A stretch of DNA of 64,000 nucleotides, taken from Candidatus Aminicenantes bacterium. GTDB taxonomy: Bacteria > Acidobacteriota > Aminicenantia > Aminicenantales > Aminicenantaceae. Below, in pieces: positions 26,307-55,496 of the stretch; the first letter of the stretch is position 1, and the number at the start of each line of letters is the position of its first letter. Below the pieces are notes generated by a model, which was not told the origin of the DNA, did no database searches, and worked only from the letters and a program-made list of their open reading frames with translations. The position numbers were made by a program, and so were the translations under genes. The stretch is from contig DAOVDU010000001.1 of the NCBI GenBank assembly GCA_030669305.1, positions 14,812-78,811 on the forward strand, in the 5' to 3' direction.

Positions 26307-26420
26307 GTTAATCTGTTAGTCGGTTAGTCTGTTAGTCGGTTATTTTAATTAAAATATTCAACTGACTAACTGATCAACAGTCTAACTGTCTAACTGACAA
26401 ACTGTCTAACTGACTAACAG
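26307..26420. repeat. octamer-array hairpin element (CNGTTARW arrays in inverted orientation around palindromic AT core TATTTTAATTAAAATA)
   Basis: CTGTTAGTCGGTTAGTCTGTTAGTCGGTTA, then the AT core, then ACTGACTAACTGATCAACAGTCTAACTGTCTAACTGAC... read directly. Confidence 0.8.
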
Positions 26421-26426
26421 AAATTT

Positions 26427-28433
26427 TTAACGAATATATCCTAAGGCTTTCAACTGTTCTAATAATTCCTCATCGATCTCAGGCCTGGATATTTTTCTCT
26501 TCTTTGCCTTGCTGTAGATTTCATTAATTTGCTGGATTATCTGGTTGACAAGCACGGATTTTTTATCAGCTATGTTCTTTCTTTCTATCGAATCTTGTTT
26601 TAAATCATAAAGTTCTATAGGTTTTAAAGCAGGAGGGGCATAGAGAAAAAAATCCAGATCTTTCATACTGAATTTTTTATTGAGAATGAGTTTGTCTTTT
26701 CCCATATTCATGGAGATTTTCCGTGGAATGCGGGAATTCAAAATATTACTTCCTATGTCCGCTAAAAATTTTCTATCTCCTTTCTCTTTTCCTTCTATCA
26801 CAGGAAATAAACTCCTGCCGTCAATGTTCAAATCAGAAAAATCTATCCCCATCTCCTCCAAGATGGTCGGCATGACATCTACAAGAGAGACAATATTTCC
26901 GATCTCTTTCCCTTTAAATTTTGATCCTGGGAATTTAATGACAAGTGGAACTTTCAGAGATTCATCATAAAGACTATGCCCATGTCCCCAGCCCTTATGA
27001 TCATAAAACTCCTCGCCATGGTCACTGGTAAATATGATCATCGTCTGGTCATAAAGCTCCATCTCTTTAAGCTTCCCTATAAGAGGCCCTATAAGTTTTT
27101 CATCTGTATAGCGGATTTCTCCATCATATAGGTCGATGATATTCTGGCGTTCTTCCTCAGGAAGTCTCTTAAACAAACCTGGCTTCCCACCCAGGTAACT
27201 GACTAAATCTATGTGTCTCCATTTAGCTCCTTCCTTAGTAAACATCGTTTTATAGGGATAAGGACAGGCATAAGGGTTATGAGTCTGATAAGTATGGAGA
27301 AAAAGAAAAAAATTCTTATTTTTCTCTCTGTCAAGCCATTCTGAAACAACACGAAATAAAAGTTCAGCTGAATCCTGCTGAAAAACTCCCCCTACTCCAT
27401 CACGATATGTATCAAAGCCTTTGGAGAATCCATAAACAGAGCTGACAAATCCTCCTCCCGTAAAAGAAGAACAAAATAAATGATTCTGCCGTAAAATATC
27501 AGCCAGGGTGAGGACAGCAGGGTCCATTTTCTCTCTGTCATAATAGACTTGATGATGAACTCCATGCAATGAGGTTAAAAGCGAGACATGAGAAGGGAGG
27601 GTCCATGGCGAAGAAGCATATGTATTAAGGAACAAAGCACTGTCTGAAGCTAGGGAATCAATGTTAGGGCTCGTGTCTCTATTATATCCATAACAACCTA
27701 AGTGATCAGCCCTGAGAGTATCAATAGAAATAAGGATAATATTACGAAGGCTTCTTTCTTTCCTGTACAGGACTGGATTATACCAAAAGGAAAAATTATG
27801 TTCTCCACCTTCTGTAACAAGCGACAACTCTACTTCTTCCTGAGTATAAGGAACGTCGATACAATGCCTGGAAAAAGAATGTTTTTCATCCTTGTCAGGA
27901 AATGGAAGGTGTTTTTGGAAAATTGTCTTTTTTCTTCCTTTTGTTTCAAAGGAGATTAAAAAAGTAGCGCCTCTTTCTTTGTTCCCAGTAGATTTGATAA
28001 GTTCTTCTGAATTTTCATCCCTGACATTGCCAATACCAAATTCTAATAAGGAATTCTCTGGAATATTAAGGCTGAAAGTGAATTTACTCTTTGGAGGAGA
28101 AAAAAGCACATTTATCTCTGCTCCACCAAGTTTTAATTTCCTCTTTATTCCAAAAGGATTATCTCCAGAACCTAAGTCCAGGATCTGGTGAGACTTTAAA
28201 GGGAAATACCTATTCGATTCTCCCGATTCTTTGGAAATTTGAATCAGCGGTGAATGAATAATATTTTCTTTATCAAGATTATCAATTAATCTATAGAGTT
28301 TAAATTCGGACAAAGGAGATTTTGCGCAATTACTTAGAAAAAACAAGGGAAATAGGAAAATAAGAGCCTTTTTTTTCATAAACATCGAGTTACTGCCAAT
28401 TGGCATTTTAATTGATTTAATCTCTGTGTTCAA
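26427..28433 (-). CDS. alkaline-phosphatase-superfamily (sulfatase-fold) lipoprotein with Thr/His in place of the FGly Cys/Arg
   Basis: DTLRADHLGCYGY metal-binding motif. The nucleophile region is TLPSHVSLLTS instead of C-x-P-x-R-x-S-L-L-T-G. Signal peptide MKKKALIFLFPLFFLSNC, with the likely true start about 18 codons inside the ORF. Confidence 0.7.
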   Translation of the reverse strand: MNTEIKSIKMPIGSNSMFMKKKALIFLFPLFFLSNCAKSPLSEFKLYRLIDNLDKENIIHSPLIQISKESGESNRYFPLKSHQILDLGSGDNPFGIKRKLKLGGAEINVLFSPPKSKFTFSLNIPENSLLEFGIGNVRDENSEELIKSTGNKERGATFLISFETKGRKKTIFQKHLPFPDKDEKHSFSRHCIDVPYTQEEVELSLVTEGGEHNFSFWYNPVLYRKERSLRNIILISIDTLRADHLGCYGYNRDTSPNIDSLASDSALFLNTYASSPWTLPSHVSLLTSLHGVHHQVYYDREKMDPAVLTLADILRQNHLFCSSFTGGGFVSSVYGFSKGFDTYRDGVGGVFQQDSAELLFRVVSEWLDREKNKNFFLFLHTYQTHNPYACPYPYKTMFTKEGAKWRHIDLVSYLGGKPGLFKRLPEEERQNIIDLYDGEIRYTDEKLIGPLIGKLKEMELYDQTMIIFTSDHGEEFYDHKGWGHGHSLYDESLKVPLVIKFPGSKFKGKEIGNIVSLVDVMPTILEEMGIDFSDLNIDGRSLFPVIEGKEKGDRKFLADIGSNILNSRIPRKISMNMGKDKLILNKKFSMKDLDFFLYAPPALKPIELYDLKQDSIERKNIADKKSVLVNQIIQQINEIYSKAKKRKISRPEIDEELLEQLKALGYIR

Positions 28434-28436
28434 TGT

Positions 28437-28613
28437 TTTAATCTGTTAGTCTGTTAATCTGTTAGTCTGTTAATCGGTTAGACTGTTAATCTGTTAGTCA
28501 GTTAGTCTGTTAGTCAGTTAGTCTGTTAATCAGTTAATATTTTATTTATCTTAAATGGGATGTTAGGAGTTAACAGACTAAACGGGCCTGACGGACTCAA
28601 CAGACATAACTGA
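28437..28613. repeat. octamer array (about 12 direct CTGTTAGT/CTGTTAAT units) plus a degenerate inverted partial array
   Basis: Read directly. It sits immediately upstream of the sulfatase-like gene start. Confidence 0.8.
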
Positions 28614-28721
28614 GAGAAAATTTGAACTTCCTTTTTTATTATTATATTATCTTTTTATCCGGACAGGTGAGAAAAATTCAATTAAACTAAAATCTTTTTT
28701 TAAAGGAAGGAATACATTTTT

Positions 28722-29195
28722 ATGGAAATTAAAAAAAAATTAAGAATTGGAGTTATCGGAGGAGCAAAACCGGATACTGAATCCCGCCAGACTGCCTTCA
28801 AGCTCGGACAATTAATCGCAGAAAAAAAGGCAATCCTTGTCTGTGGAGGGCTCAGTGGAGTGATGGAAGCTGCTGCCCGAGGGGCAAAGCAATCTGGGGG
28901 ATTGACTGTGGGCATCCTCCCAGGAATTTCCCCTAAGGACGCAAACCCATACATAGATATTGCGATTGCAACAGGATTAGGATACAGCCGTAATTCTCTT
29001 GTGGCCTTGAACTCTGATATCTTAATCGCTGTAGACGGGCAATACGGAACTCTCACTGAAATCGCTTATGGCTGCATCTACAGGAAAAAAATCATTGGAA
29101 TTGGGACATGGGACATTGAGAGTGTAATCAAGGCTGACACAGCTGAGGAAGCCATAGACTTAGCGCTAAAAGATTATTTTCCGCTGGTCAGATAA
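28722..29195 (+). CDS. TIGR00725/LOG-like (SLOG Rossmann) family protein
   Basis: RIGVIGGAKPDTE...ILVCGGLSGVMEAAARGA...GILPG pattern typical of LOG/TIGR00725 proteins. Confidence 0.6.
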   Translation: MEIKKKLRIGVIGGAKPDTESRQTAFKLGQLIAEKKAILVCGGLSGVMEAAARGAKQSGGLTVGILPGISPKDANPYIDIAIATGLGYSRNSLVALNSDILIAVDGQYGTLTEIAYGCIYRKKIIGIGTWDIESVIKADTAEEAIDLALKDYFPLVR

Positions 29196-29225
29196 GATAG
29201 TGATATAATAGGGACGTTCCCCATT

Positions 29226-29966
29226 ATGGTCCCCATTATGCAAAATTATAAGATAAAAATCAGCTACGACGGCACGGATTACCATGGCTGGCAGCGTCAG
29301 CCTGATAGAAAAACAATTCAAGGCCTGCTTGAAAATGCACTTTTCAAACTCTGCTCAAAGAAAATCAATGTTATCGGAGCAGGAAGAACAGACTCAGGAG
29401 TGCATGCACATGGACAGGTAGCCCATTTCAAAGCCGCTCTAAACCTCAGCGACGAAGAGTTCTTCCAGGCCTTGAACGGGCAACTCCCCAAAGATATAAG
29501 GATAATCTCGCTCAAAAGTGTAGACACAAATTTTCACGCCCGCAAAATGGCCAAATCAAAAATATACCAATACAGAATATATAACTCACCTGACATCAGT
29601 CCATTTCTTTTCAGGTATGTTCTTCAATGGTCATCGCCGCTTGATGTGGAATCGATGGAAGAAGCAGCTAAACATTTCGTTAGAGATGCAGACTTTACTC
29701 CATTCTCTTCCAATCGCTTTCTACATCCGATAAGGAAAGTATTTCGCTCGGAGATCATAAGAAAAGGCAAGGAAATTATCTACACGGTCGAAGCGAACGG
29801 ATTTTTAAGATATATGGTTCGGACCATGGTGGGAACTCTCCTTGAAATCGGCAGAGGAAGGATTCCACCTGACAGTATACGCGAACTCTTCAAACAAGGA
29901 AAACGTTCTCTCGAAAGCCCCACGGCTCCAGCACGTGGACTGTGCCTTATGAAAGTCAAATATTAG
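29226..29966 (+). CDS. truA: tRNA pseudouridine(38-40) synthase TruA
   Basis: IKISYDGTDYHGWQRQP and GAGRTDSGVHAHGQV, with the catalytic Asp in RTDSGVHA. Confidence 0.85.
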   Translation: MVPIMQNYKIKISYDGTDYHGWQRQPDRKTIQGLLENALFKLCSKKINVIGAGRTDSGVHAHGQVAHFKAALNLSDEEFFQALNGQLPKDIRIISLKSVDTNFHARKMAKSKIYQYRIYNSPDISPFLFRYVLQWSSPLDVESMEEAAKHFVRDADFTPFSSNRFLHPIRKVFRSEIIRKGKEIIYTVEANGFLRYMVRTMVGTLLEIGRGRIPPDSIRELFKQGKRSLESPTAPARGLCLMKVKY

Positions 29967-29969
29967 AAT

Positions 29970-30075
29970 GCCAAAACCTATATTGGTTTAAGGTTGAATG
30001 TTTAATGTTAAAGGAATAATAATAAATGAAAAATATAAATACCTTAAACCTTAAACTTTAAACCTTAAACTAATC
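29970..30075. mobile_element. MITE-like element, copy 2 (truncated, lacks the right TIR)
   Basis: GGTTTAAGGTTGAATGTTTAATGTTAAAGGAATAATAATAAATGAAAAATATAAATACCTTAAACCTTAAACTTTAAACCTTAAACTAATC matches the cores at 31685 and 42430. Confidence 0.5.
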
Positions 30076-30158
30076 CGTTGAGTCCGTTAAATAAAAAGGC
30101 GAGACGAACAAAAGGCATGTCATTGCGAGCTTTCGAAGAAAGCGTGGCAATCCCATAA

Positions 30159-30276
30159 GTTCAGTTGGTCAGTTAGTCGGTTAATCAGTTGGTCAGTTAA
30201 ATATTTTAATTAAAATAACAGACTAACCGATTAACAGACTATCCGATTAACAGACTAACAGACTAACCGAAATCAG
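30159..30276. repeat. octamer-array hairpin element with TATTTTAATTAAAATA core, followed by a T-rich tract
   Basis: Inverted arrays flank the AT core. TTTTGAGTTTTGAGTTTTTT follows, so it probably acts as a terminator between the convergent truA and rimI genes. Confidence 0.75.
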
Positions 30277-30312
30277 TTTTGAGTTTTGAGTTTTTTCTCC
30301 TCACTCCTTACT

Positions 30313-30798
30313 TTAAGCGAAGCTCTTTCCCATAAGCATGGCATCTTCCCTGGGATCACTGTAGTAGTTCCTTCTTATCCCCAAAACCTTGAACCCTAAC
30401 TTGTTGTATAAAGAGAGCGCAGCATAATTGGACGGCCTAACTTCCAGCAACACAAACTCTGCTCCTTCTCTCTTGATCTGAACGATAACCTGCCGAATAA
30501 CAGCTTCAGCAATTCCCATCATTCTAAAATCAGGGCTGACAGCAATATTGCTGATTTGGATCTCTTTTTCTACATGCCAATAAATAATGTACCCAATGAC
30601 CTTGTTTAGAGGCCTATAAACAATCACATAAGCGTTCGATATCGGGTAATTATCTATTTCTCCCTTAAAGGAAGAAACATGCCAAGGTTTGGAATAAGAA
30701 AGATTCTCAATTTTTAAAACATCAGGAAGGTCATCCTCCTCCATTCTTCTCAAATAAAAAAAATCCTGGGGGAGTTTAGCTTTCTTAATGACGTTCAT
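30313..30798 (-). CDS. rimI: ribosomal-protein-alanine N-acetyltransferase RimI (GNAT)
   Basis: GNAT motif A region (RMMGIAEAVIRQ). Conserved pairing with tsaB and a 14-nt overlap with it. Confidence 0.75.
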   Translation of the reverse strand: MNVIKKAKLPQDFFYLRRMEEDDLPDVLKIENLSYSKPWHVSSFKGEIDNYPISNAYVIVYRPLNKVIGYIIYWHVEKEIQISNIAVSPDFRMMGIAEAVIRQVIVQIKREGAEFVLLEVRPSNYAALSLYNKLGFKVLGIRRNYYSDPREDAMLMGKSFA

Positions 30799-31465
30799 CC
30801 GCCTGAGACTTCCGAAAGTATAGTGGTTCGACTTTGCAAAAATCCATTCCTTTATTCTCCTTTAATATTTCATAGCCAAGCAGCCCAACCTCGTTGGCTA
30901 TAAAGAGCGAACGTGATGGAAATCTGACCTTATCTTTAAAATACTGAAAAATTTTGTTCTTGTAAACATAAACTCCGGTGCCGATAAAGAAAATTATCCT
31001 GTGGGAAGGAAGAAGTGAGAAGAAGCGATCAGGAGAATAAGCGCCCTGACGAACAATTTCCTTAAGCTCGCTTCCCCTTGAATCGAAAAGAGCAGCATAG
31101 ATCTCGCCTTTTTTGGCATCCAATAAAGGACAGAGAAGGCGGCTCTGCGGGTGCTGTAGCTTTAACGCAAGTGCTTTTAAGGTTGAAACTGGCGCGATTG
31201 GCTTTCCGGAAGCATACGCAAAAGACTTAACCGTACTCAGCCCGATCCTGATTCCTGTAAAAGATCCCGGGCCTACAGCCAATGCAAAACCATCGATGTT
31301 TCTAATCTTCAAACCTCTGTTTTTTAGCAGAAATTGGACAGCCGGAAGAAGCCTTTCGGAATATGTCGTGGAAGAATCTATATTTACCTCGGATAGAAGC
31401 TTAGTATTCTTTAAAATCGCTATTGATCCAGCAGAAGTAGTTGTGTCCACTGAAAGAATTAACAT
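30785..31465 (-). CDS. tsaB: tRNA t6A37 threonylcarbamoyladenosine biosynthesis protein TsaB
   Basis: MLILSVDTTTSAGSIAIL N-terminus and an inactive Kae1/YgjD-like fold. Gene pair with rimI. Confidence 0.8.
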   Translation of the reverse strand: MLILSVDTTTSAGSIAILKNTKLLSEVNIDSSTTYSERLLPAVQFLLKNRGLKIRNIDGFALAVGPGSFTGIRIGLSTVKSFAYASGKPIAPVSTLKALALKLQHPQSRLLCPLLDAKKGEIYAALFDSRGSELKEIVRQGAYSPDRFFSLLPSHRIIFFIGTGVYVYKNKIFQYFKDKVRFPSRSLFIANEVGLLGYEILKENKGMDFCKVEPLYFRKSQADERH

Positions 31466-31618
31466 AGCAGTCCTATCTCCAGTTTAGCGTTTTACTGTAG
31501 TAGAAAAATCCATCGGTTCTTTGTATTTAATATATCATTTAAACCATCGCTCATGGGCTCAATAAATTCTTATTTAATATTATTCAAAGAGTAAAATATT
31601 TTGTCAATGCATATAAAA

Positions 31619-31822
31619 TTCCAAATTACAATTTCCAAATACCAAACAAGCACCAAAATCCCAATGCCCGAAACCTTTTTGGTTTAAGGTTAAATGTTTA
31701 AGGCAAGAGTGGAAATTGGATTAAGGTTGAATGTTTAATGTTTAAGGATTAATACTAAAAGAAAAATATAAATACCTTAAACTTTAAACTTTAAACTAAT
31801 CATTTGGAATTTGGTGCTTTTT
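31619..31822. mobile_element. MITE-like element, copy 3 (most complete, about 205 bp, imperfect ~20-bp TIRs)
   Basis: Left ...AAGCACCAAAATCCCAATG. Right CATTTGGAATTTGGTGCTTTTT, which is the reverse complement ...AGCACCAAATTCCAAATG. Internal core as in the other copies. Confidence 0.55.
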
Positions 31823-32026
31823 ATTTTTAAAGCAAATCTTTAATAGTCGCTGCAACTATTCCGCAAAACCTTCTAGGCGCTCCGAAAATAGGATAATCGC
31901 TATGAAAATAAAATAGCAGGTAGGCTTATTAAATATATATATGCTGGCTGTTGGGGGAAATAAGCAAAAGGGGGTTATGAAGTGTTTACAGCCAGCATAA
32001 ACAATTGTTTTAAATATACATATAAT

Positions 32027-32062
32027 AAAGAAAAAAGTCAATCACCTTTAAAGGTGATTTTT
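32027..32062. terminator. bidirectional intrinsic-terminator-like hairpin (TCACCTTTAAAGGTGA flanked by T/A runs)
   Basis: Perfect 16-bp palindrome with TTTTT on the + side and AAAAAAG on the other. Lies about 110 bp past the last gene of the minus-strand ECF operon. Confidence 0.5.
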
Positions 32063-32166
32063 AAGGGATGATATTTATTAGGAGAAAACCAGAAATACAA
32101 AGAAAAAAGGGAAATGGAAGGATTTTTCCATTTTTCTCAAATGTCTTTCCGGTTGGCGTTAAATTT

Positions 32167-32553
32167 CTATTCCAGCCAAACCTTCACTACTTCGTCGTCT
32201 TCGTAGACTTCAACCAGCACCATCGGACCGAGTTTTTTAAGCTCCGCAAAAATCTCCTTGAGGTCAATATCATAGTCATCACAATCGATTCTCAGATTCT
32301 TATCAGGGCTACATTTGATAAAAATATCAACTAATGAAATTGGAAGTGTAATCCGGACTTTATCTTTTTTCGTGCGGGTATCTGTAACAAGGACCTTGAA
32401 CCACTTCACTTCTGTCCCAGCCTTATACTCGGGATTATTCTTGACAGCCTTCTTGATCGCCTGAATGTTATCCTTGCGCTCGGCCAAGAGAAAGCTCATC
32501 AGAAAAAGGGTCAAAGTGAACACGACTAACACAATAATTGCAGCTTTTTTCAT
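32167..32553 (-). CDS. small secreted protein (128 aa) sharing a C-terminal module with the upstream TPR/HEAT protein
   Basis: Signal/TM MKKAAIIVLVVFTLTLFLMSFLLA. Its C-terminus DLKEIFAELKKLGPMVLVEVYEDDEVVKVWLE parallels DLDKIVKELMEFRGKIIEIKTEKSIIKIWID of the ORF at 32566. Confidence 0.5.
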   Translation of the reverse strand: MKKAAIIVLVVFTLTLFLMSFLLAERKDNIQAIKKAVKNNPEYKAGTEVKWFKVLVTDTRTKKDKVRITLPISLVDIFIKCSPDKNLRIDCDDYDIDLKEIFAELKKLGPMVLVEVYEDDEVVKVWLE

Positions 32554-32565
32554 TGTTGCCTCCTT

Positions 32566-34806: not shown

Positions 34807-34960
34807 TATTTTTAAATATTAAAAAAAAAATTGGCTTTTTCATTCAAGCCAAATCAGTATTTTGTTCTCCTCATCTTTTCCATTCTTCACCTCATTTGAG
34901 TATCTTCAAAGTGTATTACGGATATACTTTTAAAAAGGTTCATGCTTAGTAAAAGTTTTT

Positions 34961-35201
34961 CTGTTAGTCAGTTAATCCGTTAGTCTGTTTATCTGTTAAT
35001 AAGTTTAATTCATATAATTGATAAAAAAGAAATTATATTAAAATGACGATATCAATAATTACCTATTATCCCCACAAATGGAAGAAGAACCAAATAAGAT
35101 AACTGATTAACTGACTAACCGACTAACAGTCTAACTGATTAACTGACTAACAGTCTAACCGTCTAACCGATTAACCGACTAACAGTCTAACCGATTAACT
35201 G
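34961..35201. repeat. octamer-array element: left array 34961-35000, right inverted array 35101-35201, separated by about 100 bp of AT-rich sequence
   Basis: Read directly. The right array holds about 12 units of TAACTGAC/TAACCGAC type. Confidence 0.8.
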
Positions 35202-35205
35202 AAGC

Positions 35206-37375: not shown

Positions 37376-37470
37376 GTTATTATCCTTTTTTTTTAAATCA
37401 GTTAACCAGTTTGTCGATTATCTATTTTAGAATAAACATAAAAAAAAGCAAATTTCTATTTTGTGGATTA

Positions 37471-37553
37471 TTGATTAACAGATTAACTGACTAACTGATT
37501 AACTGACTAACTGACTAACTGACTAACTGACTAACAGATTAACAGATTAACAG
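37471..37553. repeat. octamer array (about 10 units TAACTGAC/TAACAGAT) in the divergent spacer between the ABC operon and sppA
   Basis: Read directly. Confidence 0.8.
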
Positions 37554-37651
37554 AACAAAAAATTCTATAGTTCCATGATGTCATATTTTCTGTTATATTT
37601 AATCCTAAAAACTCTGACAAGAATATTTCGACAATTTGAGTAGGAGGAAAA

Positions 37652-39367: not shown

Positions 39368-39368
39368 A

Positions 39369-39500
39369 ATCTGTTTATCTGTTAATCGGTTAGTCTGTTT
39401 TGTCTGTTCTGAAATAAATAACTGACTAAATTGTCTAAGCTAATTCCTTGTCTTGCCTGTCTTGCCAGCGAAGCGTTGTCTTGCCTGTCTTGCCCTTTCT
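39369..39500. repeat. degenerate octamer hairpin (39369-39440) plus a third repeat family (TTGTCTTGCCTGTCTTGCC x2 around AGCGAAGCG, 39447-39500)
   Basis: Read directly. Related sequence recurs at 47941-48035. Confidence 0.6.
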
Positions 39501-42404: not shown

Positions 42405-42532
42405 CGAAACAAATCCAAATGACCGAAACTTATATTAGTTTAATGTTAAAGGTTTAATGTTTAAAGAATAATACTAAATGAAAAATATAAATACTTTAAA
42501 CTTTAAACCTTAAACTGATCCATTTGGAATTT
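42405..42532. mobile_element. MITE-like element, copy 4
   Basis: ACAAATCCAAATGACCGAAAC...GTTTAATGTTAAAGGTTTAATGTTTAAAGAATAATACTAAATGAAAAATATAAATACTTTAAACTTTAAACCTTAAACTGATCCATTTGGAATTTTC. Confidence 0.5.
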
Positions 42533-46905: not shown

Positions 46906-47586
46906 GATGTGTTTAACCTTTGGTTTCCCTTTAGTTTTGGTTATAAGAGTTAGAGTTTGAAAATAAAGCGTGCTCCCGAGAGGAATGATAAGCCTTCCTC
47001 CCTCCTTTAACTGATCTAAAAGAGGTGAAGGAACATGATTTGCTGCACAGGTGACAATAATGGCATCAAAAGGGGCAAATTCCTCCCAACCAAAATAGCC
47101 ATCTTCCCATTTCACACACACCTGATTGTAACTCAATCTTTCCAGCGTCTCTGATGCTTTCTTTGCCAAATTCTCTCTTATCTCAATCGAATAAACTTTA
47201 TCTGTCAGATGAGCAAGCACTGCAGCCTGGTAACCTGAACCAGTCCCGATCTCTAAAACTTTCTCTCCCTTTTTCAACTTAAGATATTGGGTCATAAGAG
47301 CTACTATATAGGGCTGGGAAATTGTCTGCCCCTCTTCAATTGGCAGAGGATAATCCTCGTAAGCTTGGCTGCGGTGTCGTTTGCTGACAAAAAGATGACG
47401 GGGAACTTTCCCCATCGTATCAAGCACGTTTCTGTCAGTTATATCTCGAGCAGCAAGCTGCCTCTGGACCATTTCTTTCCTCAGCCGTGTGTAAACTTCA
47501 TCCTCTCCTCCAAAGCACAAAAGATAAACAAACGCTAAAACTCCTGAAAGAGCAAAAATGATTACAAAAAATTTCCCTTTTTTCAT
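46762..47586 (-). CDS. pcm: protein-L-isoaspartate O-methyltransferase with N-terminal TM anchor
   Basis: [21 protein letters not shown] motif and PCMT-like flanks. The 3' end overlaps the convergent 812-aa gene by about 143 nt, so the exact stop is uncertain. Confidence 0.75.
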
Positions 47587-47631
47587 TTTCCTTATTCTCG
47601 CCCAAAAGAGAACTTAAATCAATCCCCTTCA

Positions 47632-47930
47632 TCGGTTAATCGGTTAATCTGTTAGTCTGTTAGTCAGTTGATCTGTTAAATATTCTAATTAGGCTCATCT
47701 CCAAAAGATTTGGTAGGATCATAAGGGGTCAAGGGGTCAGGGGTTCGAGTGACGTGCTGAAAAGTTACAAAGAGCAGAACGTTTGGCAAAAGTCCTATGA
47801 TTTTTGAAAGGTTCGAACCCTTTGCATCAACTAATCAGGAGAAAAATCTTTAATTAAAATAACTGACTAACTGATTAACTGACTAACAGACTAACAGACT
47901 AACAGATTAACTGATTAACTGATTAACTGA
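47632..47930. repeat. octamer-array hairpin element split by a ~180-bp insert (left array 47632-47680, right inverted array 47861-47930)
   Basis: Left array ends ...AAATATTCTAATTA. The right array begins after ...TTAATTAAAATA. So the palindromic AT core is interrupted by 47681-47860. Confidence 0.6.
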
Positions 47931-48280
47931 ATTGATGAGATTGTCACGCTTCGCTCGCAACAGAGGATTGCCACTCTTTCTTCGAAAGCTTGCAATGACA
48001 CCCCTTTTGCCTATCTTGCCTGTCTTGCTGTCTACTCTTTAGGGGTGAATAGAATATTGTGAAACTTCCCCCCTAAAATCCTCCTCCCCGGTGATTGACA
48101 ACCAAATTGGGATAGATATATAAAAGAAAAGAAGATAATAGAAAGATGGTAAAATATTTTTCTTTCTTGAGGAGGTCAATTACCATAATATTGGAGCAAA
48201 AAAAAATTTTTTAGTTTGACAAAACATTTTTTATTTGATATTTAATTACCAACCCAGGTGAATAAACTAATAACATATAC

Positions 48281-48766
48281 ATGAAGAATAAAGCTGTTTA
48301 TCCTGGCTCATTTGATCCTATAACTAACGGACATGTTGATATAATTCAAAGAGGGTTGGAAATTTTCGATAAAATATTGATTTCGGTTTTAAAAAATCCC
48401 AAAAAGGAACTACTTTTTTCGACTAAAGAAAGAGTAGATATGATTCAGACCATTTTTTCTAGTCAAGAGAAGGTCGAAGTAAAGGCTTTCGATGGTCTCC
48501 TTGTTGATTTCGCAAAAAAAAACAATGCCAAAATAATCATAAGAGGCCTAAGAGCCATCTCCGATTTTGAGTATGAATTTCAGATGACTTTAATGAACAG
48601 AAAACTTGATCCTGAAATTGAAACATTTTTTTTGATGCCCAATGTCAATTATTCTTTCCTCAGCTCAAAGTTGGTTAAGGAAGTCTCCATGTTGGGAGGT
48701 TGTCTCCAAGGCTTGGTTCCCATGGAAGTAGAAAAAAAACTGAAGAAAAAATTTAAAATAAATTGA
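48281..48766 (+). CDS. coaD: phosphopantetheine adenylyltransferase
   Basis: KAVYPGSFDPITNGHVDII nucleotidyltransferase motif. 161 aa. Confidence 0.9.
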   Translation: MKNKAVYPGSFDPITNGHVDIIQRGLEIFDKILISVLKNPKKELLFSTKERVDMIQTIFSSQEKVEVKAFDGLLVDFAKKNNAKIIIRGLRAISDFEYEFQMTLMNRKLDPEIETFFLMPNVNYSFLSSKLVKEVSMLGGCLQGLVPMEVEKKLKKKFKIN

Positions 48767-48804: not shown

Positions 48805-49884
48805 ATGTTCGGATTCAACAGAGAAAAAGAATTGCTTGGGTTAGACATTGGTTCTTACTCTATTAAGGCTGTCGAACTTAAGTCAAAAAAAAAGGAAATA
48901 GAAGAGCTCTACGAAGTCAAAAAAATTGGATATGAACTGCTTCCCCATGATGCAATAGTAGAGGGAACAATTATCGATTCTGCTGCTGTAGTTGAAACAA
49001 TAAAAATGATTTTTGATGAAAATAAGATTTCAAATAAGAATATTACCATTGGTATTTCAGGAAATGCAGTGATTATCAAAAAAATATCACTTCCCTCTAT
49101 GGAAACAGAAGAATTGGCCGAATCCATTATTTGGGAAGCCAAGCATAACATTCCCTATCCCTATGAAGAAACAAATGTTGATTATGCCATTCTAAAACCA
49201 TCTCAATATCCAGAGGAAACAAACCTTGATATTCTTCTTGTGGCAGCAAAAAAGGACAAGATTGCAAACTATAGTAGCGCAATCAATCAGGCCCGCAAGA
49301 ATTTGGAAGTAATTGACGTGGATGTTTTCGCCCTCCAAAATGCTCTGGAAGTAAACTATCCAGAGATCTTTAATGAAAAAACAATTGCTATAATTAATCT
49401 TGGAGCAAACATAACAAATGTCATCATAATCGAAAAGGGAATTCCTCAACTCTTCCGAGATTTATCCCTCGGAGGCTCCTTTTTTACAGAAAACATGAGC
49501 AAGGATTTAGGCATCAGCTTCGACGATGCTGAAAAGTTGCTTAAGGGCCTTCCGGTCAAAGATATTGAACCAGAACGGTTTCAGACAATCCTGAATATGA
49601 ATGTACAAAATATCATCGAAGAACTTGAAAAGACTTTTTCTTTCTACGAAGCTGGAGAAAAAAAAGAGAGGAAAATCGAACTCATTTTCCTTAGCGGTGG
49701 ACTTTCCAAATTGAAAGACTTATCAAGCAATTTTGAACAAAAGTTCAAAATTAAGACAGATATTTTTAACCCGTTCCGGAGAATTTATTTTGATGAAAGG
49801 AAATTCGATAGCATTTATTTGGAAGAAATGGCTGCTCTTTTCGGAGTGGCCACAGGGCTAGCGATAAGAAAAGTGGAAAAATAG
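48805..49884 (+). CDS. pilM: type IV pilus assembly protein PilM
   Basis: Actin-like ATPase fold beginning LGLDIGSYSIKAVEL. First gene of a pilMNOPQ-like operon. Confidence 0.8.
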   Translation: MFGFNREKELLGLDIGSYSIKAVELKSKKKEIEELYEVKKIGYELLPHDAIVEGTIIDSAAVVETIKMIFDENKISNKNITIGISGNAVIIKKISLPSMETEELAESIIWEAKHNIPYPYEETNVDYAILKPSQYPEETNLDILLVAAKKDKIANYSSAINQARKNLEVIDVDVFALQNALEVNYPEIFNEKTIAIINLGANITNVIIIEKGIPQLFRDLSLGGSFFTENMSKDLGISFDDAEKLLKGLPVKDIEPERFQTILNMNVQNIIEELEKTFSFYEAGEKKERKIELIFLSGGLSKLKDLSSNFEQKFKIKTDIFNPFRRIYFDERKFDSIYLEEMAALFGVATGLAIRKVEK

Positions 49885-49887
49885 ACA

Positions 49888-50505
49888 ATGATAAAAATAA
49901 ACTTATTAAAACCGGGAAAAAAAGAGATTAAAGAGGGGCCAACCCCTTTGGCCCCGGAATTTAAAGAAAAGAAAAAACAACCCCTATACAGCCTGATCAT
50001 CCTCGTTGTAATTATTGCTATTGCAGCTCTTTTCTTTTTTCAGAAATCATCTTTCAATAAAGAACAAAACCTTTTAAGAACTGCCCAGGAAGAAAAAAAG
50101 GAGCTGGAGTATGTTGAAGTTAAGTTAGCCCAATTGGAACAGCAAAGGGATCTTATTAACAGAAAAATCAGCCTCATCAGACGGCTACAATCGCATCAAG
50201 AAATTGCCGTTAGAATAATCGATGAACTAAGCAAGAATATTCCAGGCTGGGTCTGGCTAACCGAAACAACTTATGAGAACTATCTTTTGAAGATAAATGG
50301 TCAAGCACTATCCAATAATCTCATCGCAGACTACATCTTCAACTTGAACAAAAGTCCCTACTTCCGCAACGTTAGCCTTATTTCCTCAACTCAAAGTTCC
50401 TCAAGAACTAATAAGTATTTAGAATTTTCCCTAACAGCAAAATATGTTCTTCCTCCTGCGATTATGTCCCCAACAGGAGAAGCTGAAAAAAGGGAGGAAA
50501 AATGA
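49888..50505 (+). CDS. pilN: type IV pilus assembly protein PilN
   Basis: N-terminal KINLLKP motif, single TM and coiled coil. Confidence 0.75.
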   Translation: MIKINLLKPGKKEIKEGPTPLAPEFKEKKKQPLYSLIILVVIIAIAALFFFQKSSFNKEQNLLRTAQEEKKELEYVEVKLAQLEQQRDLINRKISLIRRLQSHQEIAVRIIDELSKNIPGWVWLTETTYENYLLKINGQALSNNLIADYIFNLNKSPYFRNVSLISSTQSSSRTNKYLEFSLTAKYVLPPAIMSPTGEAEKREEK

Positions 50506-51086
50506 GAGATTGGCCTTGGTATGGTTATGTTCTAATAGCAATTATTATTTTTGGGATTTTCTTTCTATTTTACTTCAGACCCAAAAATGAAGAACTTAAA
50601 GAGCTCAGAGAAGAAAGAATAATAGTTGAAAAAGATGTAGTAAGGCTGCAAGCAAAAAAAGATCAGCTGGATATAATAGAAGAAGAACTAAAACTCATGA
50701 GCGCAACCCTTAATGAATTAGAGGCCATCATGCCTCAAAAGGAAGAAATTGACGTTATTTTAAGACAAATCCAACAGCTCGCAAATGACACCCGACTAAA
50801 TATTACAAAATTCGTCCCAAAAGGGGAAATTGCCAAAGATTTTTATGCAGAAAAACCAATTTCAATAGAAATAACCGGAAATTATCATAACTTAGGAATA
50901 TTCTTTGATCGACTGAGCAATTTTTCGCGTCTTTTCAATATTGAGGATTTTTCAATAAAATCCCTTCGCTTACAATCTGAAGCCTCCACCATTTCAGCTA
51001 AATTGACAGCCAAAACTTATATTTCTCCTGAAGCACAGCCAGATCAAGAAGAAAGTGGAAAAAACATAGGAGAGGAGAAAAAATGA
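50502..51086 (+). CDS. pilO: type IV pilus assembly protein PilO
   Basis: Single TM, coiled coil and C-terminal PilO-like domain. Operon position, with a 4-nt overlap. Confidence 0.7.
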   Translation: MRDWPWYGYVLIAIIIFGIFFLFYFRPKNEELKELREERIIVEKDVVRLQAKKDQLDIIEEELKLMSATLNELEAIMPQKEEIDVILRQIQQLANDTRLNITKFVPKGEIAKDFYAEKPISIEITGNYHNLGIFFDRLSNFSRLFNIEDFSIKSLRLQSEASTISAKLTAKTYISPEAQPDQEESGKNIGEEKK

Positions 51087-51544
51087 GGAAAATAATCACG
51101 GTTTTTCTTTTTGTAAGCCTTCTCTGCTTAAGTTTTCACCCTCTTTCTGCTCAGGAAGTGAAAAAGAAAGCAGAAATGCAAAAAGGCACTGATGTATTAA
51201 AAAAGGAATCCTTTTCCTACAACCCGGCTGGAAGAAGAGATCCCTTTAAAAATCTACTCGTGGGGCAAGAAGTTAAGGATAAAACTTTGGCTGGAGGGAT
51301 TTCGCAAATCTCAATCAACGATGTCATTCTTATCGGTATTGCTAAGGCAAAAGGAAAATTGACTGCCATCATAAATGGTCCACAGGGATTCCCTTTCTAT
51401 CTTAAAATAGGAGATAGACTTCTTGATGGTTTCGTTCTTTCTATAAAAGATTCTAAAGTTATTTTCCGTAAGACAAAAGAAAGAGGCACGCCCCTATATA
51501 AATCGAAAGACATTGTCAAAGAAATAAATCCAGAGGAGCGATAA
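51083..51544 (+). CDS. pilP: type IV pilus assembly protein PilP-like
   Basis: Signal peptide and about 150 aa. Position between pilO and the secretin, with a 4-nt overlap. Confidence 0.55.
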   Translation: MRKIITVFLFVSLLCLSFHPLSAQEVKKKAEMQKGTDVLKKESFSYNPAGRRDPFKNLLVGQEVKDKTLAGGISQISINDVILIGIAKAKGKLTAIINGPQGFPFYLKIGDRLLDGFVLSIKDSKVIFRKTKERGTPLYKSKDIVKEINPEER

Positions 51545-51545
51545 T

Positions 51546-53906
51546 ATGAAAACGAAAAAATATTTGCAAGCACTCTCTCTATTATGCATCCTTCTTCTCA
51601 CGAGTGGATTTGCAAGCAACAATGAATCCTCAACTAACATAAATAATATATCTATCGAGCCTGGGAAACTCAATACAAAGATAATTCTAGAAGCAAGCTC
51701 TTCTCTTTCTATCTTTAATTCACACTACTCCAAGAAATTTCCTTCAACAATTGTCATTGATCTAGACAATGTAAAAACGATTCAGGAACCACAATTCATA
51801 CCAAATGAATCTACACTGATTAATAGAATAAAGATAGAAAAAATAGATATGGACAAGGCTCGCCTCCTCATCGACCTTAAGGAAAGAGTGCCTTATCGAA
51901 TCATTTCAGACAAAGAAAGCACAATAATTGAGTTAAATGAAATCCAGAAATCTCCAGGAGATTACACTCTTAATCCTGAAATAAAAAAAGAGCTAGAAAA
52001 AAGCACAAAGACCAACATTCATTTAAAAGGAATTAATGTCTCAGAGAATAAAGATAGGATTGATATCACTGCCAGGCTTAGCGATGAGGCTATCTCTCAA
52101 ATATTTGTTCTTGACAATCCGCTACGTCTTGTAGTCGATCTTTTCGATACATTATATTCCAAGCCAATATCAGTCTATCCAGTAAATAAGCTGGGAATAA
52201 AAAAAGTGAGAATAGCTCAGTTCCAAGTTTCAAACCCTTACACTATTACACGAATAGTCTTTGACATCACAGAACCCAAATTCTATACCATAGACTCAAG
52301 CATGGAAAAGATGGTCTTTTCTTTCTATAAGGAAACAGCTGCTCAATCAGTCCCTGTAATAGGCACTTCTGTTCCAACGGACGTCAAACCGAATTTTAAT
52401 GAGCAATATATCCCTCAAAAGCTGGAACAACCTGTAATAAAAAAAGTTAAACCTAATATAAAAGAAAAACCAGCACAAGAGAAAAAGAATCAAACTACAC
52501 AAGAAAAAATCGAGCCTGAAAAAACAACAGAAAACAAAAACATTGATCCTCCAAAACCCATTCAGTCAAACAAAAATGTGGTTTCTCCAAACGGAAACAG
52601 AACCCAGGAGGATCAGTTCAAGCCAAAAACCATAGCTGAGGCTGAAGAAAAATATTCAGGTGATTTAATCAGTCTAAGATTTAAAGATGCTGATTTGAGG
52701 GATGTTATTCTTTATATAGGAGACCATGCCGGATTAAATGTTGTTTTTGACCCTGATGTAAGAGGAGTTGTAACCTGTAACCTCGAGGATGTGCCTTGGG
52801 ATCAAGCTCTTGATGTTCTTATCAAAAATAACAAGATGGGTAAAACCATAGAAGGAAACATACTCCGGATTGCACCTATCAATGTTCTTATGAGGGAGCA
52901 GGATGATCAGCGAAGATTAGAGGAGAGTAAAGAATTAGCAGGGCCTATCCTGGTAAAAACTTTTACTCTATCCTATTCTAAAGCTGGAGACGTTCACGGG
53001 CTTTTGCGTTCTAAAATATCAGAAAGAGGTGAAATCATCGTTGACGGGCGAACTAACACATTAATAATATCTGATGTAAAAGATAGAATTGACCTTTTAG
53101 AGAAACTCATAGTTGTATTTGACACTCCAACTCCTCAAGTTTCTATAGAAGCCCGGATTGTGGAAGCAACATCCACATTTATCCGCAATCTCGGAGTCCA
53201 ATGGGGATTTAGAGGTATATCAGATCCTTTTTACGGCAACCAGACCTCCCTTCAATTCCCGCATACAGCAATAATTGACGGAGCACTCATTCCTCAAGGA
53301 ATCATAACAAAGGGTATCGGAGGGCCTTTAGGCGGTTATGCTGTCAATCTTCCTGCCCCTGCATTTACCACGGCCCTGGGTATCTCCTTCAGTAATGTAT
53401 TAGATACCTTCAGGATAGACATGGCTATTTCTGCTCTTGAGACTTCAGGAGACGGTCGAATCATCTCTAGTCCCACTGTTACTACTCAGAACAACCAAGA
53501 GGCAGAAATCATACAGGGCAGGCAAATTCCTGTTCAGACCGTAGCAAATTTTACCGTAACCACAAGATATGTTAATGCCGCCTTAGAACTCAGAGCTACC
53601 CCTCAGATTACTGCCGAGGGGACAATTATCATGCATATTGAAATACAGAACAATGCAGCCGACTTCGCCAACCTTGTCAACGGCATTCCTCCTATAACTA
53701 CTCAGAGCGCCACGACTACAGTCATGATTCCTGATGGAGGAACTACCGTAATCGGAGGAATATATAGAACCGAAGATTCTATAACTCGAGAAGGAGTTCC
53801 ATTTCTCCATAAAATACCTATTCTGGGAAACCTTTTCAAATCCTTCGCTCGAACAAAGCAGACTCGAGAACTGCTAATATTTATTACTCCCAGAATAATC
53901 AAATAA
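51546..53906 (+). CDS. pilQ: type IV pilus secretin PilQ (two AMIN domains, low-complexity linker, N0 and secretin domains)
   Basis: C-terminal secretin block GGIYRTEDSITREGVPFLHKIPILGNLFKSFARTKQTRELLIFITPRII. Two AMIN-like repeats in the N-terminal third. Confidence 0.85.
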   Translation: MKTKKYLQALSLLCILLLTSGFASNNESSTNINNISIEPGKLNTKIILEASSSLSIFNSHYSKKFPSTIVIDLDNVKTIQEPQFIPNESTLINRIKIEKIDMDKARLLIDLKERVPYRIISDKESTIIELNEIQKSPGDYTLNPEIKKELEKSTKTNIHLKGINVSENKDRIDITARLSDEAISQIFVLDNPLRLVVDLFDTLYSKPISVYPVNKLGIKKVRIAQFQVSNPYTITRIVFDITEPKFYTIDSSMEKMVFSFYKETAAQSVPVIGTSVPTDVKPNFNEQYIPQKLEQPVIKKVKPNIKEKPAQEKKNQTTQEKIEPEKTTENKNIDPPKPIQSNKNVVSPNGNRTQEDQFKPKTIAEAEEKYSGDLISLRFKDADLRDVILYIGDHAGLNVVFDPDVRGVVTCNLEDVPWDQALDVLIKNNKMGKTIEGNILRIAPINVLMREQDDQRRLEESKELAGPILVKTFTLSYSKAGDVHGLLRSKISERGEIIVDGRTNTLIISDVKDRIDLLEKLIVVFDTPTPQVSIEARIVEATSTFIRNLGVQWGFRGISDPFYGNQTSLQFPHTAIIDGALIPQGIITKGIGGPLGGYAVNLPAPAFTTALGISFSNVLDTFRIDMAISALETSGDGRIISSPTVTTQNNQEAEIIQGRQIPVQTVANFTVTTRYVNAALELRATPQITAEGTIIMHIEIQNNAADFANLVNGIPPITTQSATTTVMIPDGGTTVIGGIYRTEDSITREGVPFLHKIPILGNLFKSFARTKQTRELLIFITPRIIK

Positions 53907-53918
53907 GAGGATGAAAAA

Positions 53919-54521
53919 ATGAGAAAAAGGAAAAGTGTAAAAATTATGGCAATCATTCCGGTAATTCTCTTCCTTATCTCCTGTAACCCTATAGTAAACG
54001 ATTCTACATCAGACAGTAGGCTTATTATCACAAGCATGACCGGCTTTGATATGGAAGAGAATGAAGTGAATTTTATTCAATCAGACGTTCTTTATGAGAA
54101 TCCTGATACTGGAGAGACATCTATCAGCAGTGACCCAGGCAAGGCTACTTTTTCAGCAGAGCTTTTGAATCCAGCACCCATATTTGACCCATCGCACTAT
54201 AACAGCATAACCGTGACCAAGTATACTGTGTCTTTTTCTCGATCTGATGGAAAAAACACCGAAGGAGTAGATGTTCCCTATTCTTTTTCAGGCTCTCTTT
54301 CAGCTTTAGTAGAAATTGGTTCCACGACTGAAGTTGTATTTGTCGTAGTGAGAGAAGTAGCGAAGATGGAGCCTCCTTTGTTTAGTCTGAGAGAATGCCG
54401 AGGAGATGGGGTCATTCAGGCAACAGCCAAAATTGAATTTTACGGACATGATATAACTAACCATAATGTCAAATCCACAGGCTATCTGACTGTTTTCTTT
54501 GCCAACTATGTCAATGAATGA
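53919..54521 (+). CDS. lipoprotein of unknown function (lipobox LISC)
   Basis: Signal peptide plus lipobox. No recognised domain. Translationally adjacent to pilQ. Confidence 0.45.
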   Translation: MRKRKSVKIMAIIPVILFLISCNPIVNDSTSDSRLIITSMTGFDMEENEVNFIQSDVLYENPDTGETSISSDPGKATFSAELLNPAPIFDPSHYNSITVTKYTVSFSRSDGKNTEGVDVPYSFSGSLSALVEIGSTTEVVFVVVREVAKMEPPLFSLRECRGDGVIQATAKIEFYGHDITNHNVKSTGYLTVFFANYVNE

Positions 54522-55361
54522 GTGAGGATTGGAAAAATGAAAAATAAAAGAAATATTATCATAGTCTTTTCCCTGGCTTTAATTCTATCGTTCCTCCCTT
54601 CATGCAGAAACGCAGTAGAAGAACCTGCGCCTTTCGGACCTTCCAGCCTTTCGATTCTTCTTCATACCTCCGCCAATCCCAATGTGTTATTTGCCGGCTC
54701 TACACCCGAAGTAACAACCATAACGGCCAGTTTGAAGAAATTTGACGGAACCCCTTTATCCAACATAAGCATCCATTTTGAAGTCACACCTAACCTTGGC
54801 CATTTCGAAGGCAACCTATCGGTCAAAACAAAAACAACAGACTCAAGCGGCCTTGCCTCACTAAGTTACTACGGCCCTACTGCTCAAGATTTAACTGCTA
54901 ACCAAACTCTCTACATTTATGCTTATGCCGGCTGGGAAGGCAAGGAAATTATCGCGGAATTGACTCCTGTTTATATTGTTCGAGATAAATACGATCTCGA
55001 TCTTGTCTTCGAACTGATGGCCGATCCGAATGTGTTATGGTGCACTTCAGAAAGACCTGAATCTGTAATATTAGGAATTTTCACATTTGAGGACGGAATC
55101 CCTGTTGTAGGAAGAAAGGTCTTCTTTACAATTCTATCAGGACCAGGTGAATTTTCTGACGGCAAAACAAAAACCTATGTTGTGACTGATGAAGAAGGAG
55201 TAGCCACTATAACCTACATCGGACCCACAAATGACGAAATAGACTACGACCAGTTTGTCACAATCCGAGGGCAGCCAGAAACGTATTGGGCTGACCCTGA
55301 CAATAACAAATACTACTTGCACAAAGAAATGGAAATCCGCCTCATAAAAGGAACTGATTAA
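54522..55361 (+). CDS. lipoprotein with two tandem bacterial Ig-like (Big_1-like) repeats
   Basis: Lipobox LPSC. Internal repeat NVLFAGSTPEVTTITASL...DSSGLASLSYYGPT and NVLWCTSERPESVILGIF...DEEGVATITYIGPT. Confidence 0.5.
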   Translation: MRIGKMKNKRNIIIVFSLALILSFLPSCRNAVEEPAPFGPSSLSILLHTSANPNVLFAGSTPEVTTITASLKKFDGTPLSNISIHFEVTPNLGHFEGNLSVKTKTTDSSGLASLSYYGPTAQDLTANQTLYIYAYAGWEGKEIIAELTPVYIVRDKYDLDLVFELMADPNVLWCTSERPESVILGIFTFEDGIPVVGRKVFFTILSGPGEFSDGKTKTYVVTDEEGVATITYIGPTNDEIDYDQFVTIRGQPETYWADPDNNKYYLHKEMEIRLIKGTD

Positions 55362-55494
55362 CAGACAAACTGACTAACTGTCTAACTGACTAACTGATTA
55401 AACTGACTAACTAATTAACTGACTAACTGATTAAACTGACTAACTGATTAACAGACTAACCGTCTAACTGATTAACAGACAAACTGACTAACAG
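55354..55494. repeat. octamer array (about 17 units, single orientation) between the convergent pil-lipoprotein operon and priA
   Basis: Read directly. Confidence 0.8.
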
Positions 55495-55496
55495 AA

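Follow-up and report, generated by a model that had tools for sequence, protein, structure and literature searches.

We analysed a 64,000-nt stretch of the chromosome of a Candidatus Aminicenantes bacterium (the window), in which intergenic spacers contain tandem arrays of an 8-bp repeat. The window has 39% G+C and is ordinary core chromosome, carrying the dcw cell-wall cluster, pilMNOPQ, truA, sppA, an AddA-like helicase gene, pcm and priA. Octamer arrays had been described at eight loci in an earlier note on this DNA, and Tandem Repeats Finder returned a period of 8 at every one of them. The two-unit pattern TAACNGAYTAACNGAY, allowing at most one mismatch, has 78 matches in the window, compared with 0.03 expected from 100 dinucleotide shuffles, and all 78 are confined to the eight intergenic loci. 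Outside the arrays the single octamer is not enriched and is if anything under-represented (19 scattered matches, ~40 expected from base composition). The logo of 101 in-phase units reads T (86%), A (100%), A (99%), C (100%), N, G (99%), A (90%) and Y, with T in 45%, A in 39% and C in 16% of units at position 5. Positions 2, 3, 4 and 6 (A2, A3, C4 and G6) are conserved at 99-100%, and positions 5 and 8 are free in every array.

The arrays are organised as foldbacks. An element consists of a left arm (RTCNGTTA)n, an AT-rich, near-palindromic but asymmetric centre TTTTAATTAAAATATT that offsets the register of the two arms by 4 nt, and, on its other side, a right arm (TAACNGAY)m. On the + strand the GTTA arm comes first and the TAAC arm second at every locus of the window, with no exception in related contigs. 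Loci A and C are intact hairpins, loci D and G have inserts between the arms, and loci B, E, F and H have one arm decayed or missing (Table 1). A perfect 16-nt palindrome, TATTTTAATTAAAATA, had been placed at several loci; it stands at 26341 and 30202 and nowhere else, being split by ~165 bp at 47633-47930 and degenerate at 28.5 kb and 35.0 kb. Loci A and C match as reverse complements (86%), and the element therefore has an orientation. The array claimed at 39369-39440 does have a period of 8 but is a weak, decayed copy. Locus H fills the entire convergent spacer between an open reading frame (ORF) with a Big_1 domain and priA, and provides the stop codon of the upstream ORF.

Table 1. Octamer foldbacks and accompanying repeat features of the window, with unit numbers or lengths in contigs of related strains.
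Feature	Positions	Strand	Parts	State and setting	Tandem Repeats Finder intervals	Window versus strain contigs
Locus A	26311..26422	.	left arm, 4-5 units, 26311-26342; perfect palindrome centre, 26341-26356; right arm, ~8 units, 26359-26422	intact foldback, tandem spacer; ends 6-8 nt from stop of sulfatase-like gene	26307-26342, 26360-26418	whole element: 137 nt; L121, 204 nt
Locus B	28441..28612	.	left arm, 12 units, 28441-28538; degenerate centre; decayed right arm, ~28568-28612	divergent spacer adjoining 5' end of sulfatase-like gene	28438-28538	left arm: 12 units; L121, 9 units
Locus C	30160..30271	.	left arm, 30160-30203; palindrome, 30202-30217; right arm, 30216-30271	intact foldback, convergent spacer of truA and GNAT-acetyltransferase gene; inside 326-bp mosaic, 29988-30312	30161-30199, 30216-30267	
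Locus D	34959..35203	.	left arm, 4-5 units, 34959-35000; interior, ~100 bp; right arm, 13 units, 35100-35203	right arm ends 3-6 nt from stop of ABC-2 permease gene	34960-35000, 35100-35202	right arm: 13 units; L121, 8 units
Locus E	37474..37555	.	right arm, 10 units; possible decayed left arm near 37400-37425	solo right arm, divergent spacer, 100 nt upstream of sppA	37472-37551	10 units; L116, 5 units
Locus F	39369..39440	.		decayed small foldback directly after sppA stop, followed by nonamer array	39368-39399	
Locus G	47631..47931	.	left arm, 6 units, 47631-47680; split centre with ~165-bp insert, 47690-47850; right arm, 9 units, 47860-47931	divergent spacer of pcm and CTP-transferase-like gene	47631-47679, 47860-47930	right arm: 9 units; L116 and L125, 5 units
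Locus H	55351..55496	.	right arm, ~17 units including two irregular 9-nt units	solo right arm	55352-55492	
Flank modules travelling with octamer foldback	30272..30312	.	GAAATCAG, then (TTTTGAG)n, then CTCCTCACTCCTTACT			
Second (heptamer) foldback family	29982..30079	.	(GTTTAAG/GTTGAAT)n, AT-rich loop, (CCTTAAA/CTTTAAA)n			
Heptamer foldback, other copies	16333-16549, 31676-31812, 42434-42531, 60285-60373					

At locus G the two half-centres, AATATTcTAATTA and TTTAATTAAAATA, overlap by ~8 nt when read from the sequence, and the insert looks like an insertion into the foldback centre. It starts with GGCTCATCTCCAAAAG and contains AAGGGGTC octamers (2.9 copies in the window, 3.9 in strain contig L116), and its palindrome differs symmetrically between the strains, being GGTTCGAACC in the window and GGATTCGAATCC in L116. 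The inserted element is ~115-165 nt long, and a second copy of it lies in another related contig (L130:4464-4578). A small RNA gene is one possible identity of the insert, a further small mobile element another.

Copies of the element are dispersed. Scanning metagenomes with the centre plus the first two right-arm units as query gave 25 stretches from a few related samples; among these metagenome loci 16 distinct copies fit the strict centre pattern, and ~20 sites in all have a recognisable centre between arms. The copies share the asymmetric centre, the order of unit variants near it (the first left-arm unit is GTCT in 11 of the 16 strict-centre copies) and side modules, ...(GTRAGGA)n(CTCAAAR)nCTGATTTC and CAACTGAACTTATGAGATTGCC...GCAATGAC, each on a defined side. 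Members of the family stand in either orientation at numerous intergenic sites that are unrelated to one another. Because centre, variant order and flank modules are shared at 16 or more other sites, the element appears to have spread as a unit, with slippage later. On balance we favour the reading that the arrays are the arms of a lineage-specific, hairpin-forming, non-coding mosaic family of foldback repeats, comparable to REPINs and bacterial interspersed mosaic elements (BIMEs) and to the hairpins of cyanobacterial STRRs (short tandemly repeated repetitive sequences).

Arms of the same polarity are found outside Aminicenantes. Searching a single genome per species for runs of four TAACNGAY units gave at least 99 stretches. 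Among the matches listed, these are concentrated in a few metagenome-assembled genomes (from Saprospiraceae, rumen Bacteroidales and one Ectothiorhodospiraceae) and scattered elsewhere, and adjacent arms in other phyla read GTTA then TAAC in 13 cases, against one overlapping artefact. The foldback form was met in Aminicenantes, Saprospiraceae, Bacteroidales, Chitinophagales, Hyphomicrobiales and Ectothiorhodospiraceae, with lineage-specific interiors (~75 nt in two Ectothiorhodospiraceae copies). In one Saprospiraceae contig the arms are separated, and ordinary sugar- and envelope-related genes lie between them.

These observations bear on whether the arrays could instead be purely local repeats of the long simple sequence repeat (LSSR) or STRR type, which would slip in place, gain the inverted arm by snap-back template switching and never disperse. 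Such an origin would account for the 8-bp steps in unit number between strains and for the higher-order periods of 16, 24 and 32 bp that Tandem Repeats Finder also reported at the arrays, which are typical of block duplication. Several different short-unit families share the same spacers, and mixed short tandem repeats have been described in intergenic regions of Bacteroidetes and cyanobacteria (PMC4679880). However, the same 16-nt asymmetric centre, variant order and modules recur at 16 or more unrelated sites in both orientations, which separate local origins would not yield, and snap-back would not fix one arm order, as the 13 to 1 ratio among the listed matches from other phyla illustrates. 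We hold the local origin to be unlikely, if worth keeping in view.

The octamer elements share their spacers with other short-unit repeat families. A heptamer foldback of ~98 nt has the same architecture as the octamer element, and its DNA folds have z scores of -6.3, -3.8 and -3.8. At 16396-16549 it has been amplified as a 44-nt higher-order tandem repeat, and in some copies (AAATTCC)n and (GGAATTT)n form flanking modules on the outside. There is also a third family of foldbacks, with the form (GTAAGGA/GTGAGGA)n, loop, (TCCTTAC/TCCTCAC)n; it occupies the site of window 42434-42531 on the reverse strand of L116, from a strain 97% identical, and has left a remnant at window 30297-30312; its unit resembles the GTAGG head of palindromes like repetitive extragenic palindromic (REP) sequences in the relatives considered below. 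On the side of the octamer arms opposite the flank modules of Table 1 stands a module GTCATTGCGAG...GGCAATC (30107-30150), with an inverted copy, GATTGCC...GCAATGACA, at 47931-48000 and further copies in at least eight related contigs. At 39449-39494 and 48007-48033, nonamer arrays of TGTCTTGCC (read on the opposite strand as GGCAAGACA) surround a short AGCGAAGCGT core; they recur beside many octamer foldbacks in related contigs and vary in length between strains.

Unit numbers change quickly. Strain contigs L121 and L116 are 95-98% identical to the window over 26.2-48.2 kb, and the difference at most arrays is one of whole 8-bp units (Table 1). L125 matches L116 exactly over a 1,006-nt overlap. 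The octamer part of locus F is nearly constant, with one base different in L116 and none in L001 and L002 over the stretch compared. The possibility, raised earlier, that the arrays are assembly artefacts is ruled out by independent assemblies of other samples that have arrays at the same sites; two of these, L116 and L125, agree without a difference over 363 nt. Short-read contigs do break at the arrays (L001 and L002 end inside the locus E array), which means that any short-read assembly may give collapsed unit counts. An exact-protein look-up for more strains at the 55-kb locus found none.

Whole blocks also come and go between strains. L121 lacks the entire 326-bp mosaic of locus C and has a spacer of just 20 nt in its place; TTAAG stands at both sides of the filled site and once in the empty site. 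A 356-bp block of the heptamer family (31575-31930), flanked by TTATT, is likewise missing from one strain. Neither of these two strain-specific blocks has terminal inverted repeats. The 42.4-kb site is occupied by a heptamer foldback in the window and by another kind of foldback in L116. The suggestion that the arrays are recombination hotspots fits this picture, since strains gain and lose units and there is one apparent inversion between arms. In that case (L111:5040-5560 compared with L123:12755-12990) the segment between octamer arms lies in opposite orientation, with extra modules and flanks that are 98% identical; either the inverted arms have truly flipped what lies between them, or the assembly is misjoined at the repeat. 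In another pair of contigs, 86% identical, an orthologous foldback (L119:2678-2749 and L130:317-388) has eight units in total in both, divided 5+3 in one and 3+5 in the other, with its centre in the same orientation, as if it had shifted by two units.

Unit number that varies in 8-bp steps, which are not a multiple of 3, is also what contingency (phase-variation) repeats would show if they switched neighbouring genes. Divergent promoter regions hold three of the arrays, one beside the envelope-related sulfatase/LtaS-like gene. However, variation is equally common in convergent 3'-end spacers that have no promoter, the neighbours are housekeeping genes, and the arrays run from tens to >100 bp and pair as hairpins, unlike known contingency tracts. 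Switching of this kind is very improbable.

Stop codons occur in all six frames in 10 of 12 arrays, and the two remaining, short arrays close four of the six. Arrays are indeed intergenic, as previously noted, but that they are never found inside a gene is forced by these stop codons. Sixteen spacers of the window are at least 40 nt long; some short-unit repeat family is present in 12 of them and octamers in 8. Spacers of that length are missing from the first 16 kb, which explains why no arrays occur there. That part includes 2831-11749, which looks like the standard dcw cell-wall and division cluster and holds no repeats because it has almost no intergenic DNA. Four paralogous ORFs lie in it (2831-4312, 4309-5691, 6783-8150 and 10361-11749), adjoining genes for a penicillin-binding protein, a family 4 glycosyltransferase (MraY-like) and an FtsQ-type POTRA protein. 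Within a 267-aa ORF on the minus strand (19852-20655), which has no Pfam match, 19976-20061 is a pyrimidine-rich imperfect tandem repeat (TTTCTTCTT and similar) that would encode a low-complexity Lys/Glu-rich stretch.

Twenty-eight elements could be classified by spacer: 10 divergent, 8 convergent and 10 tandem. All 10 elements in tandem spacers lie nearer the upstream stop codon (median ~7 nt) than the downstream start (median ~140 nt), which fits a role at 3' ends or simple avoidance of promoters. Their orientation relative to transcription has no bias (3 sense, 2 antisense).

Genomes from other Aminicenantes indicate what these spacers look like where the octamer family is absent. We examined five syntenic loci, one from a closed 4.43-Mb genome, whose SppA proteins are 69-76% identical to that of the window. 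It was these SppA homologues that placed the window in Candidatus Aminicenantes; an origin in Bacteroidota or Beggiatoaceae, which the genome-scan matches and the TAACTGA literature had first suggested, was rejected on that ground. All five loci, including those whose SppA identity is 72-76%, keep the gene order and have no octamer arrays; the equivalent spacers contain either palindromes resembling REP sequences (GTAGGGGCTTGAT.AATCAAGCCCC) or bidirectional terminators of compact form (AAAAGGGGAC.GTCCCCTTTT). The palindromes, GTAGGGGCTTGAT(G/A)AATCAAGCCCC(A/T)C, form clusters in L102, L103, L105 and L148, often several per spacer, around the sppA, phosphoglucomutase-family and pcm genes. A search of the window for the REP-like palindromes of the relatives found none. 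As the relatives retain synteny without arrays, the octamer family is recent and lineage-specific and occupies the niche that REP-like sequences have in sister lineages. The bracketing of the sulfatase-like gene and sppA by arrays, pointed out earlier, is incidental, both being syntenic core genes in array-free relatives.

At 48029-48074 on the minus strand lies a sub-threshold match to the Rfam DUF805b RNA (18.4 bits with a gathering threshold of 35.6, E 0.02), the sole match of a permissive search of 47500-48350. Near it stands a motif, AAAATCCTCC.C.GGTGATTGAC, that is kept in the same spacer of all relatives examined. Neither Rfam at gathering thresholds nor a tRNA scan returned anything from the whole window.

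The proposed hairpin potential is real. The RNA fold of 26305-26425 at locus A has -42.3 kcal/mol (z -7.4; DNA fold z -7.7) and that of 30155-30275 at locus C has -37.1 kcal/mol (z -6.7), with similar z scores for single-stranded DNA. Locus B folds with z -3.6 and locus F weakly, with z -1.7; the solo arms at 37474 (locus E) and 55351 (locus H) fold poorly. Positions 5 and 8 of the two arms match each other no better than by chance, and the stems therefore consist of 6-7 bp blocks with one mismatch per unit.

Strong folds together with the stop-side placement in tandem spacers raise the idea that the arrays have replaced the ordinary terminators of the clade, as 3'-end stabilisers or as terminators or insulators, the last two roles having been proposed in the earlier note too. 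Convergent spacers of the relatives hold the AAAAGGGGAC.GTCCCCTTTT terminators or REP-like palindromes and the window has none, and in one orientation the (TTTTGAG)n module follows the right arm. However, the stems are A+T-rich and broken every 8 nt, no T-run starts within 2 nt of a stem, and the solo arms fold poorly. Locus D has a separate canonical terminator-like site of its own downstream (34852-34831, minus strand). We rejected intrinsic terminators, finding no G+C-rich stem, no direct T-run and no array called by a terminator scan, and the 10 elements in divergent spacers have nothing to terminate. We give little credence to a general terminator, insulator or stabiliser role.

The pattern of conservation within the unit raises a further alternative, in which the arrays are binding sites for a sequence-specific DNA- or RNA-binding protein that would read the unit as AAC-N-G, either iteron-like or a post-transcriptional regulator of the type proposed for TAACTGA repeats. 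Position-specific conservation of TAACNGAY is suggestive of such a role: four positions are nearly invariant and two are free in every array, and the variable positions are not tied to pairing. As the arm order is fixed, the arm facing the 5' end of a gene always reads TAACNGAY in the sense of that gene, as in the 'forward' orientation of TAACTGA repeats (PMC4679880), and unit and polarity are common to several phyla. However, no candidate binding protein was found, and the neighbours are housekeeping genes with no relation to one another (truA, sppA, pcm, priA and an ABC transporter). Relatives manage without arrays, and unit numbers halve or double between near-identical strains. Only one array comes within ~11 nt of a putative start codon, a doubtful TTG; the others are 48-350 nt from start codons or abut stops. 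A dedicated regulatory function of this kind is therefore doubtful, and the alternatives set out here are not fully exclusive of one another or of the reading we favour.

Several known kinds of repeat resemble the octamer foldback. The earlier note, which was right about the arrays, had missed the published TAACTGA and STRR repeats, the mosaic and dispersed nature of the family and the parallel heptamer foldbacks. Direct repeats of the heptamer TAACTGA are known from Beggiatoaceae, cyanobacteria and some Bacteroidetes (MacGregor 2015, PMC4679880). They are mostly 'forward' and lie within a few nucleotides upstream of a start codon; in the BOGUAY genome one of 170 TAACTGA sets is inverted, and single-base variants of TAACTGA are rare as repeats (PMC4679880). 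The octamer TAACTGAY contains TAACTGA, both kinds form intergenic tandem arrays with stops in all frames, both are accompanied by other short tandem repeats in the same spacers, and both are patchy across phyla. In contrast, the period in the window is 8 and not 7 in every array according to Tandem Repeats Finder, position 5 of the unit is free (T, A or C), and inverted pairs around a conserved centre are the rule in the window and the exception in BOGUAY. Additionally, most window copies are not directly upstream of start codons, and the host phylum Aminicenantes has no earlier report of such repeats.

STRR sequences have units of 7 bp that are G+C-richer (CCCCAGT and similar), and Vioque is said to have described in 1997 that they lengthen a helix of cyanobacterial RNase P RNA. 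We know of no conserved palindromic centre, fixed arm order or side modules described for STRR. Likeness lies in short tandem intergenic units able to form stem-loops; the window differs in its 8-bp unit and in its host, an Aminicenantes bacterium and not a filamentous cyanobacterium. The 7-bp period of STRR is matched by the co-resident GTTTAAG/CTTAAAC family of the window. STRR occur in the hupS-hupL spacer and upstream of hoxW, with a proposed role in transcript stability (PMC2670836).

REPINs and BIMEs are REP doublets that form hairpins and are mobilised by REP-associated tyrosine transposases (RAYTs) (Bertels & Rainey 2011, PMC3116915). Like them, the octamer elements form inverted doublets in extragenic DNA, fold either as RNA or as single-stranded DNA, are dispersed over many sites, form mosaics with other motifs and are lineage-specific. 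They fill spacers that hold REP-like palindromes in the relatives, and the single arms look like decayed remnants of doublets, as has been argued for REP singlets (PMC3116915). However, the REP consensus is not matched, as had been suspected: the arms are tandem octamers and not imperfect palindromes of 20-40 nt with a GT[AG]G head, and many copies lie in divergent spacers.

Foldback transposons of eukaryotes have inverted ends built of short tandem repeats. The octamer element resembles them and miniature inverted-repeat transposable elements (MITEs) in its small size (~100-300 bp), in presence/absence polymorphism between strains, and in having inverted ends with a variable interior (16 nt, ~100 nt and ~165 nt in the window). 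The only pairs of filled and empty sites concern the mosaic blocks (TTAAG, TTATT), which have no terminal inverted repeats. As the earlier note held, the arrays are not CRISPR, because their 8-bp units stand head-to-tail with no spacers, unlike CRISPR repeats of 24-48 nt with unique spacers. Integron attC sites (GTTRRRY / RYYYAAC) were rejected, because GTTAGTC and GTTAATC have a T at the third R, and integron cassettes because in relatives the bracketed genes belong to the syntenic core and lie on both strands. Literature searches for the exact double-unit strings, for octamer intergenic tandem repeats in Bacteroidetes and for Aminicenantes repeats found no relevant paper. The octamer element thus works like the TAACTGA, STRR and REPIN kinds and is a member of none, because defining features of each fail.

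Several observations weigh against a dispersed, hairpin-forming mobile family. No transposase and no RAYT (an IS200/IS605-like tyrosine transposase) was found when 29 ORFs of the window, array flanks included, were scanned against Pfam, and neither these nor any other gene family recurs beside the arrays in the window or in ~200 kb of related contigs. No clean target-site duplication was found at the arm ends; this and the lack of a cognate transposase would set the family apart from MITEs and Foldback elements. The 5-bp repeats that flank the mosaic blocks could equally be target duplications or deletion microhomology, and the strain differences were read from metagenome assemblies, where repeats are liable to collapse and misjoining. 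Free positions of the two arms are complementary no more than in permuted arms (25% Watson-Crick at N, 35% at R/Y), with no compensatory changes between the arms, so that selection for pairing, as reported for REPINs, is not evident. Finally, a permuted-octamer control on viral contigs gave 1 match for the real pattern and 1 and 11 for the controls, from which TAACNGAY arrays cannot be demonstrated to be commoner across genomes than other octamer arrays.

For the foldback family that we favour, the following course would connect the observations. Copies would descend from a master element that spread by copy-and-insert or by recombination. After insertion the arms may lengthen and shorten through replication slippage or unequal exchange, and copies would be tolerated solely in spacers, since each of the six reading frames is closed by them. 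In single-stranded form, whether within a transcript or at a replication fork, the element is predicted to form a stem of 30-45 bp broken at every eighth position. At gene ends the foldback would probably act as a 3' stem-loop and all-frame stop cassette, and most copies are probably neutral or selfish passengers and not dedicated regulators. The family looks more like selfish or structural DNA than like a new regulatory system. The nearly invariant A2, A3, C4 and G6 together with the fixed arm order suggest that a sequence-specific protein reads them, and this putative protein would most plausibly be whatever mobilises the element.

Repeats make up most of the longer intergenic DNA in this Aminicenantes stretch. 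Because short-read assemblies break at them and strains that are 95-98% identical differ in them, they are useful as strain markers and, at the same time, a practical hazard when genomes are assembled and binned. With them the TAACTGA/STRR phenomenon reaches a new phylum, an 8-bp unit and a foldback architecture of fixed arm order. It is conceivable, if still unlikely, that octamer foldbacks are a polar class that crosses phyla, (RTCNGTTA)n, a lineage-specific interior and (TAACNGAY)m, served by a dedicated protein that reads AAC-N-G. If this were true, the reader could be a transposase or recombinase of a new kind, working on tandem sub-terminal sites, or else a regulator that binds nucleic acids, and the same system might underlie the TAACTGA repeats of giant sulfur bacteria and cyanobacteria. 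Four invariant and two free positions in the unit, with one polarity across phyla, provide a testable handle on the question of a dedicated protein partner.

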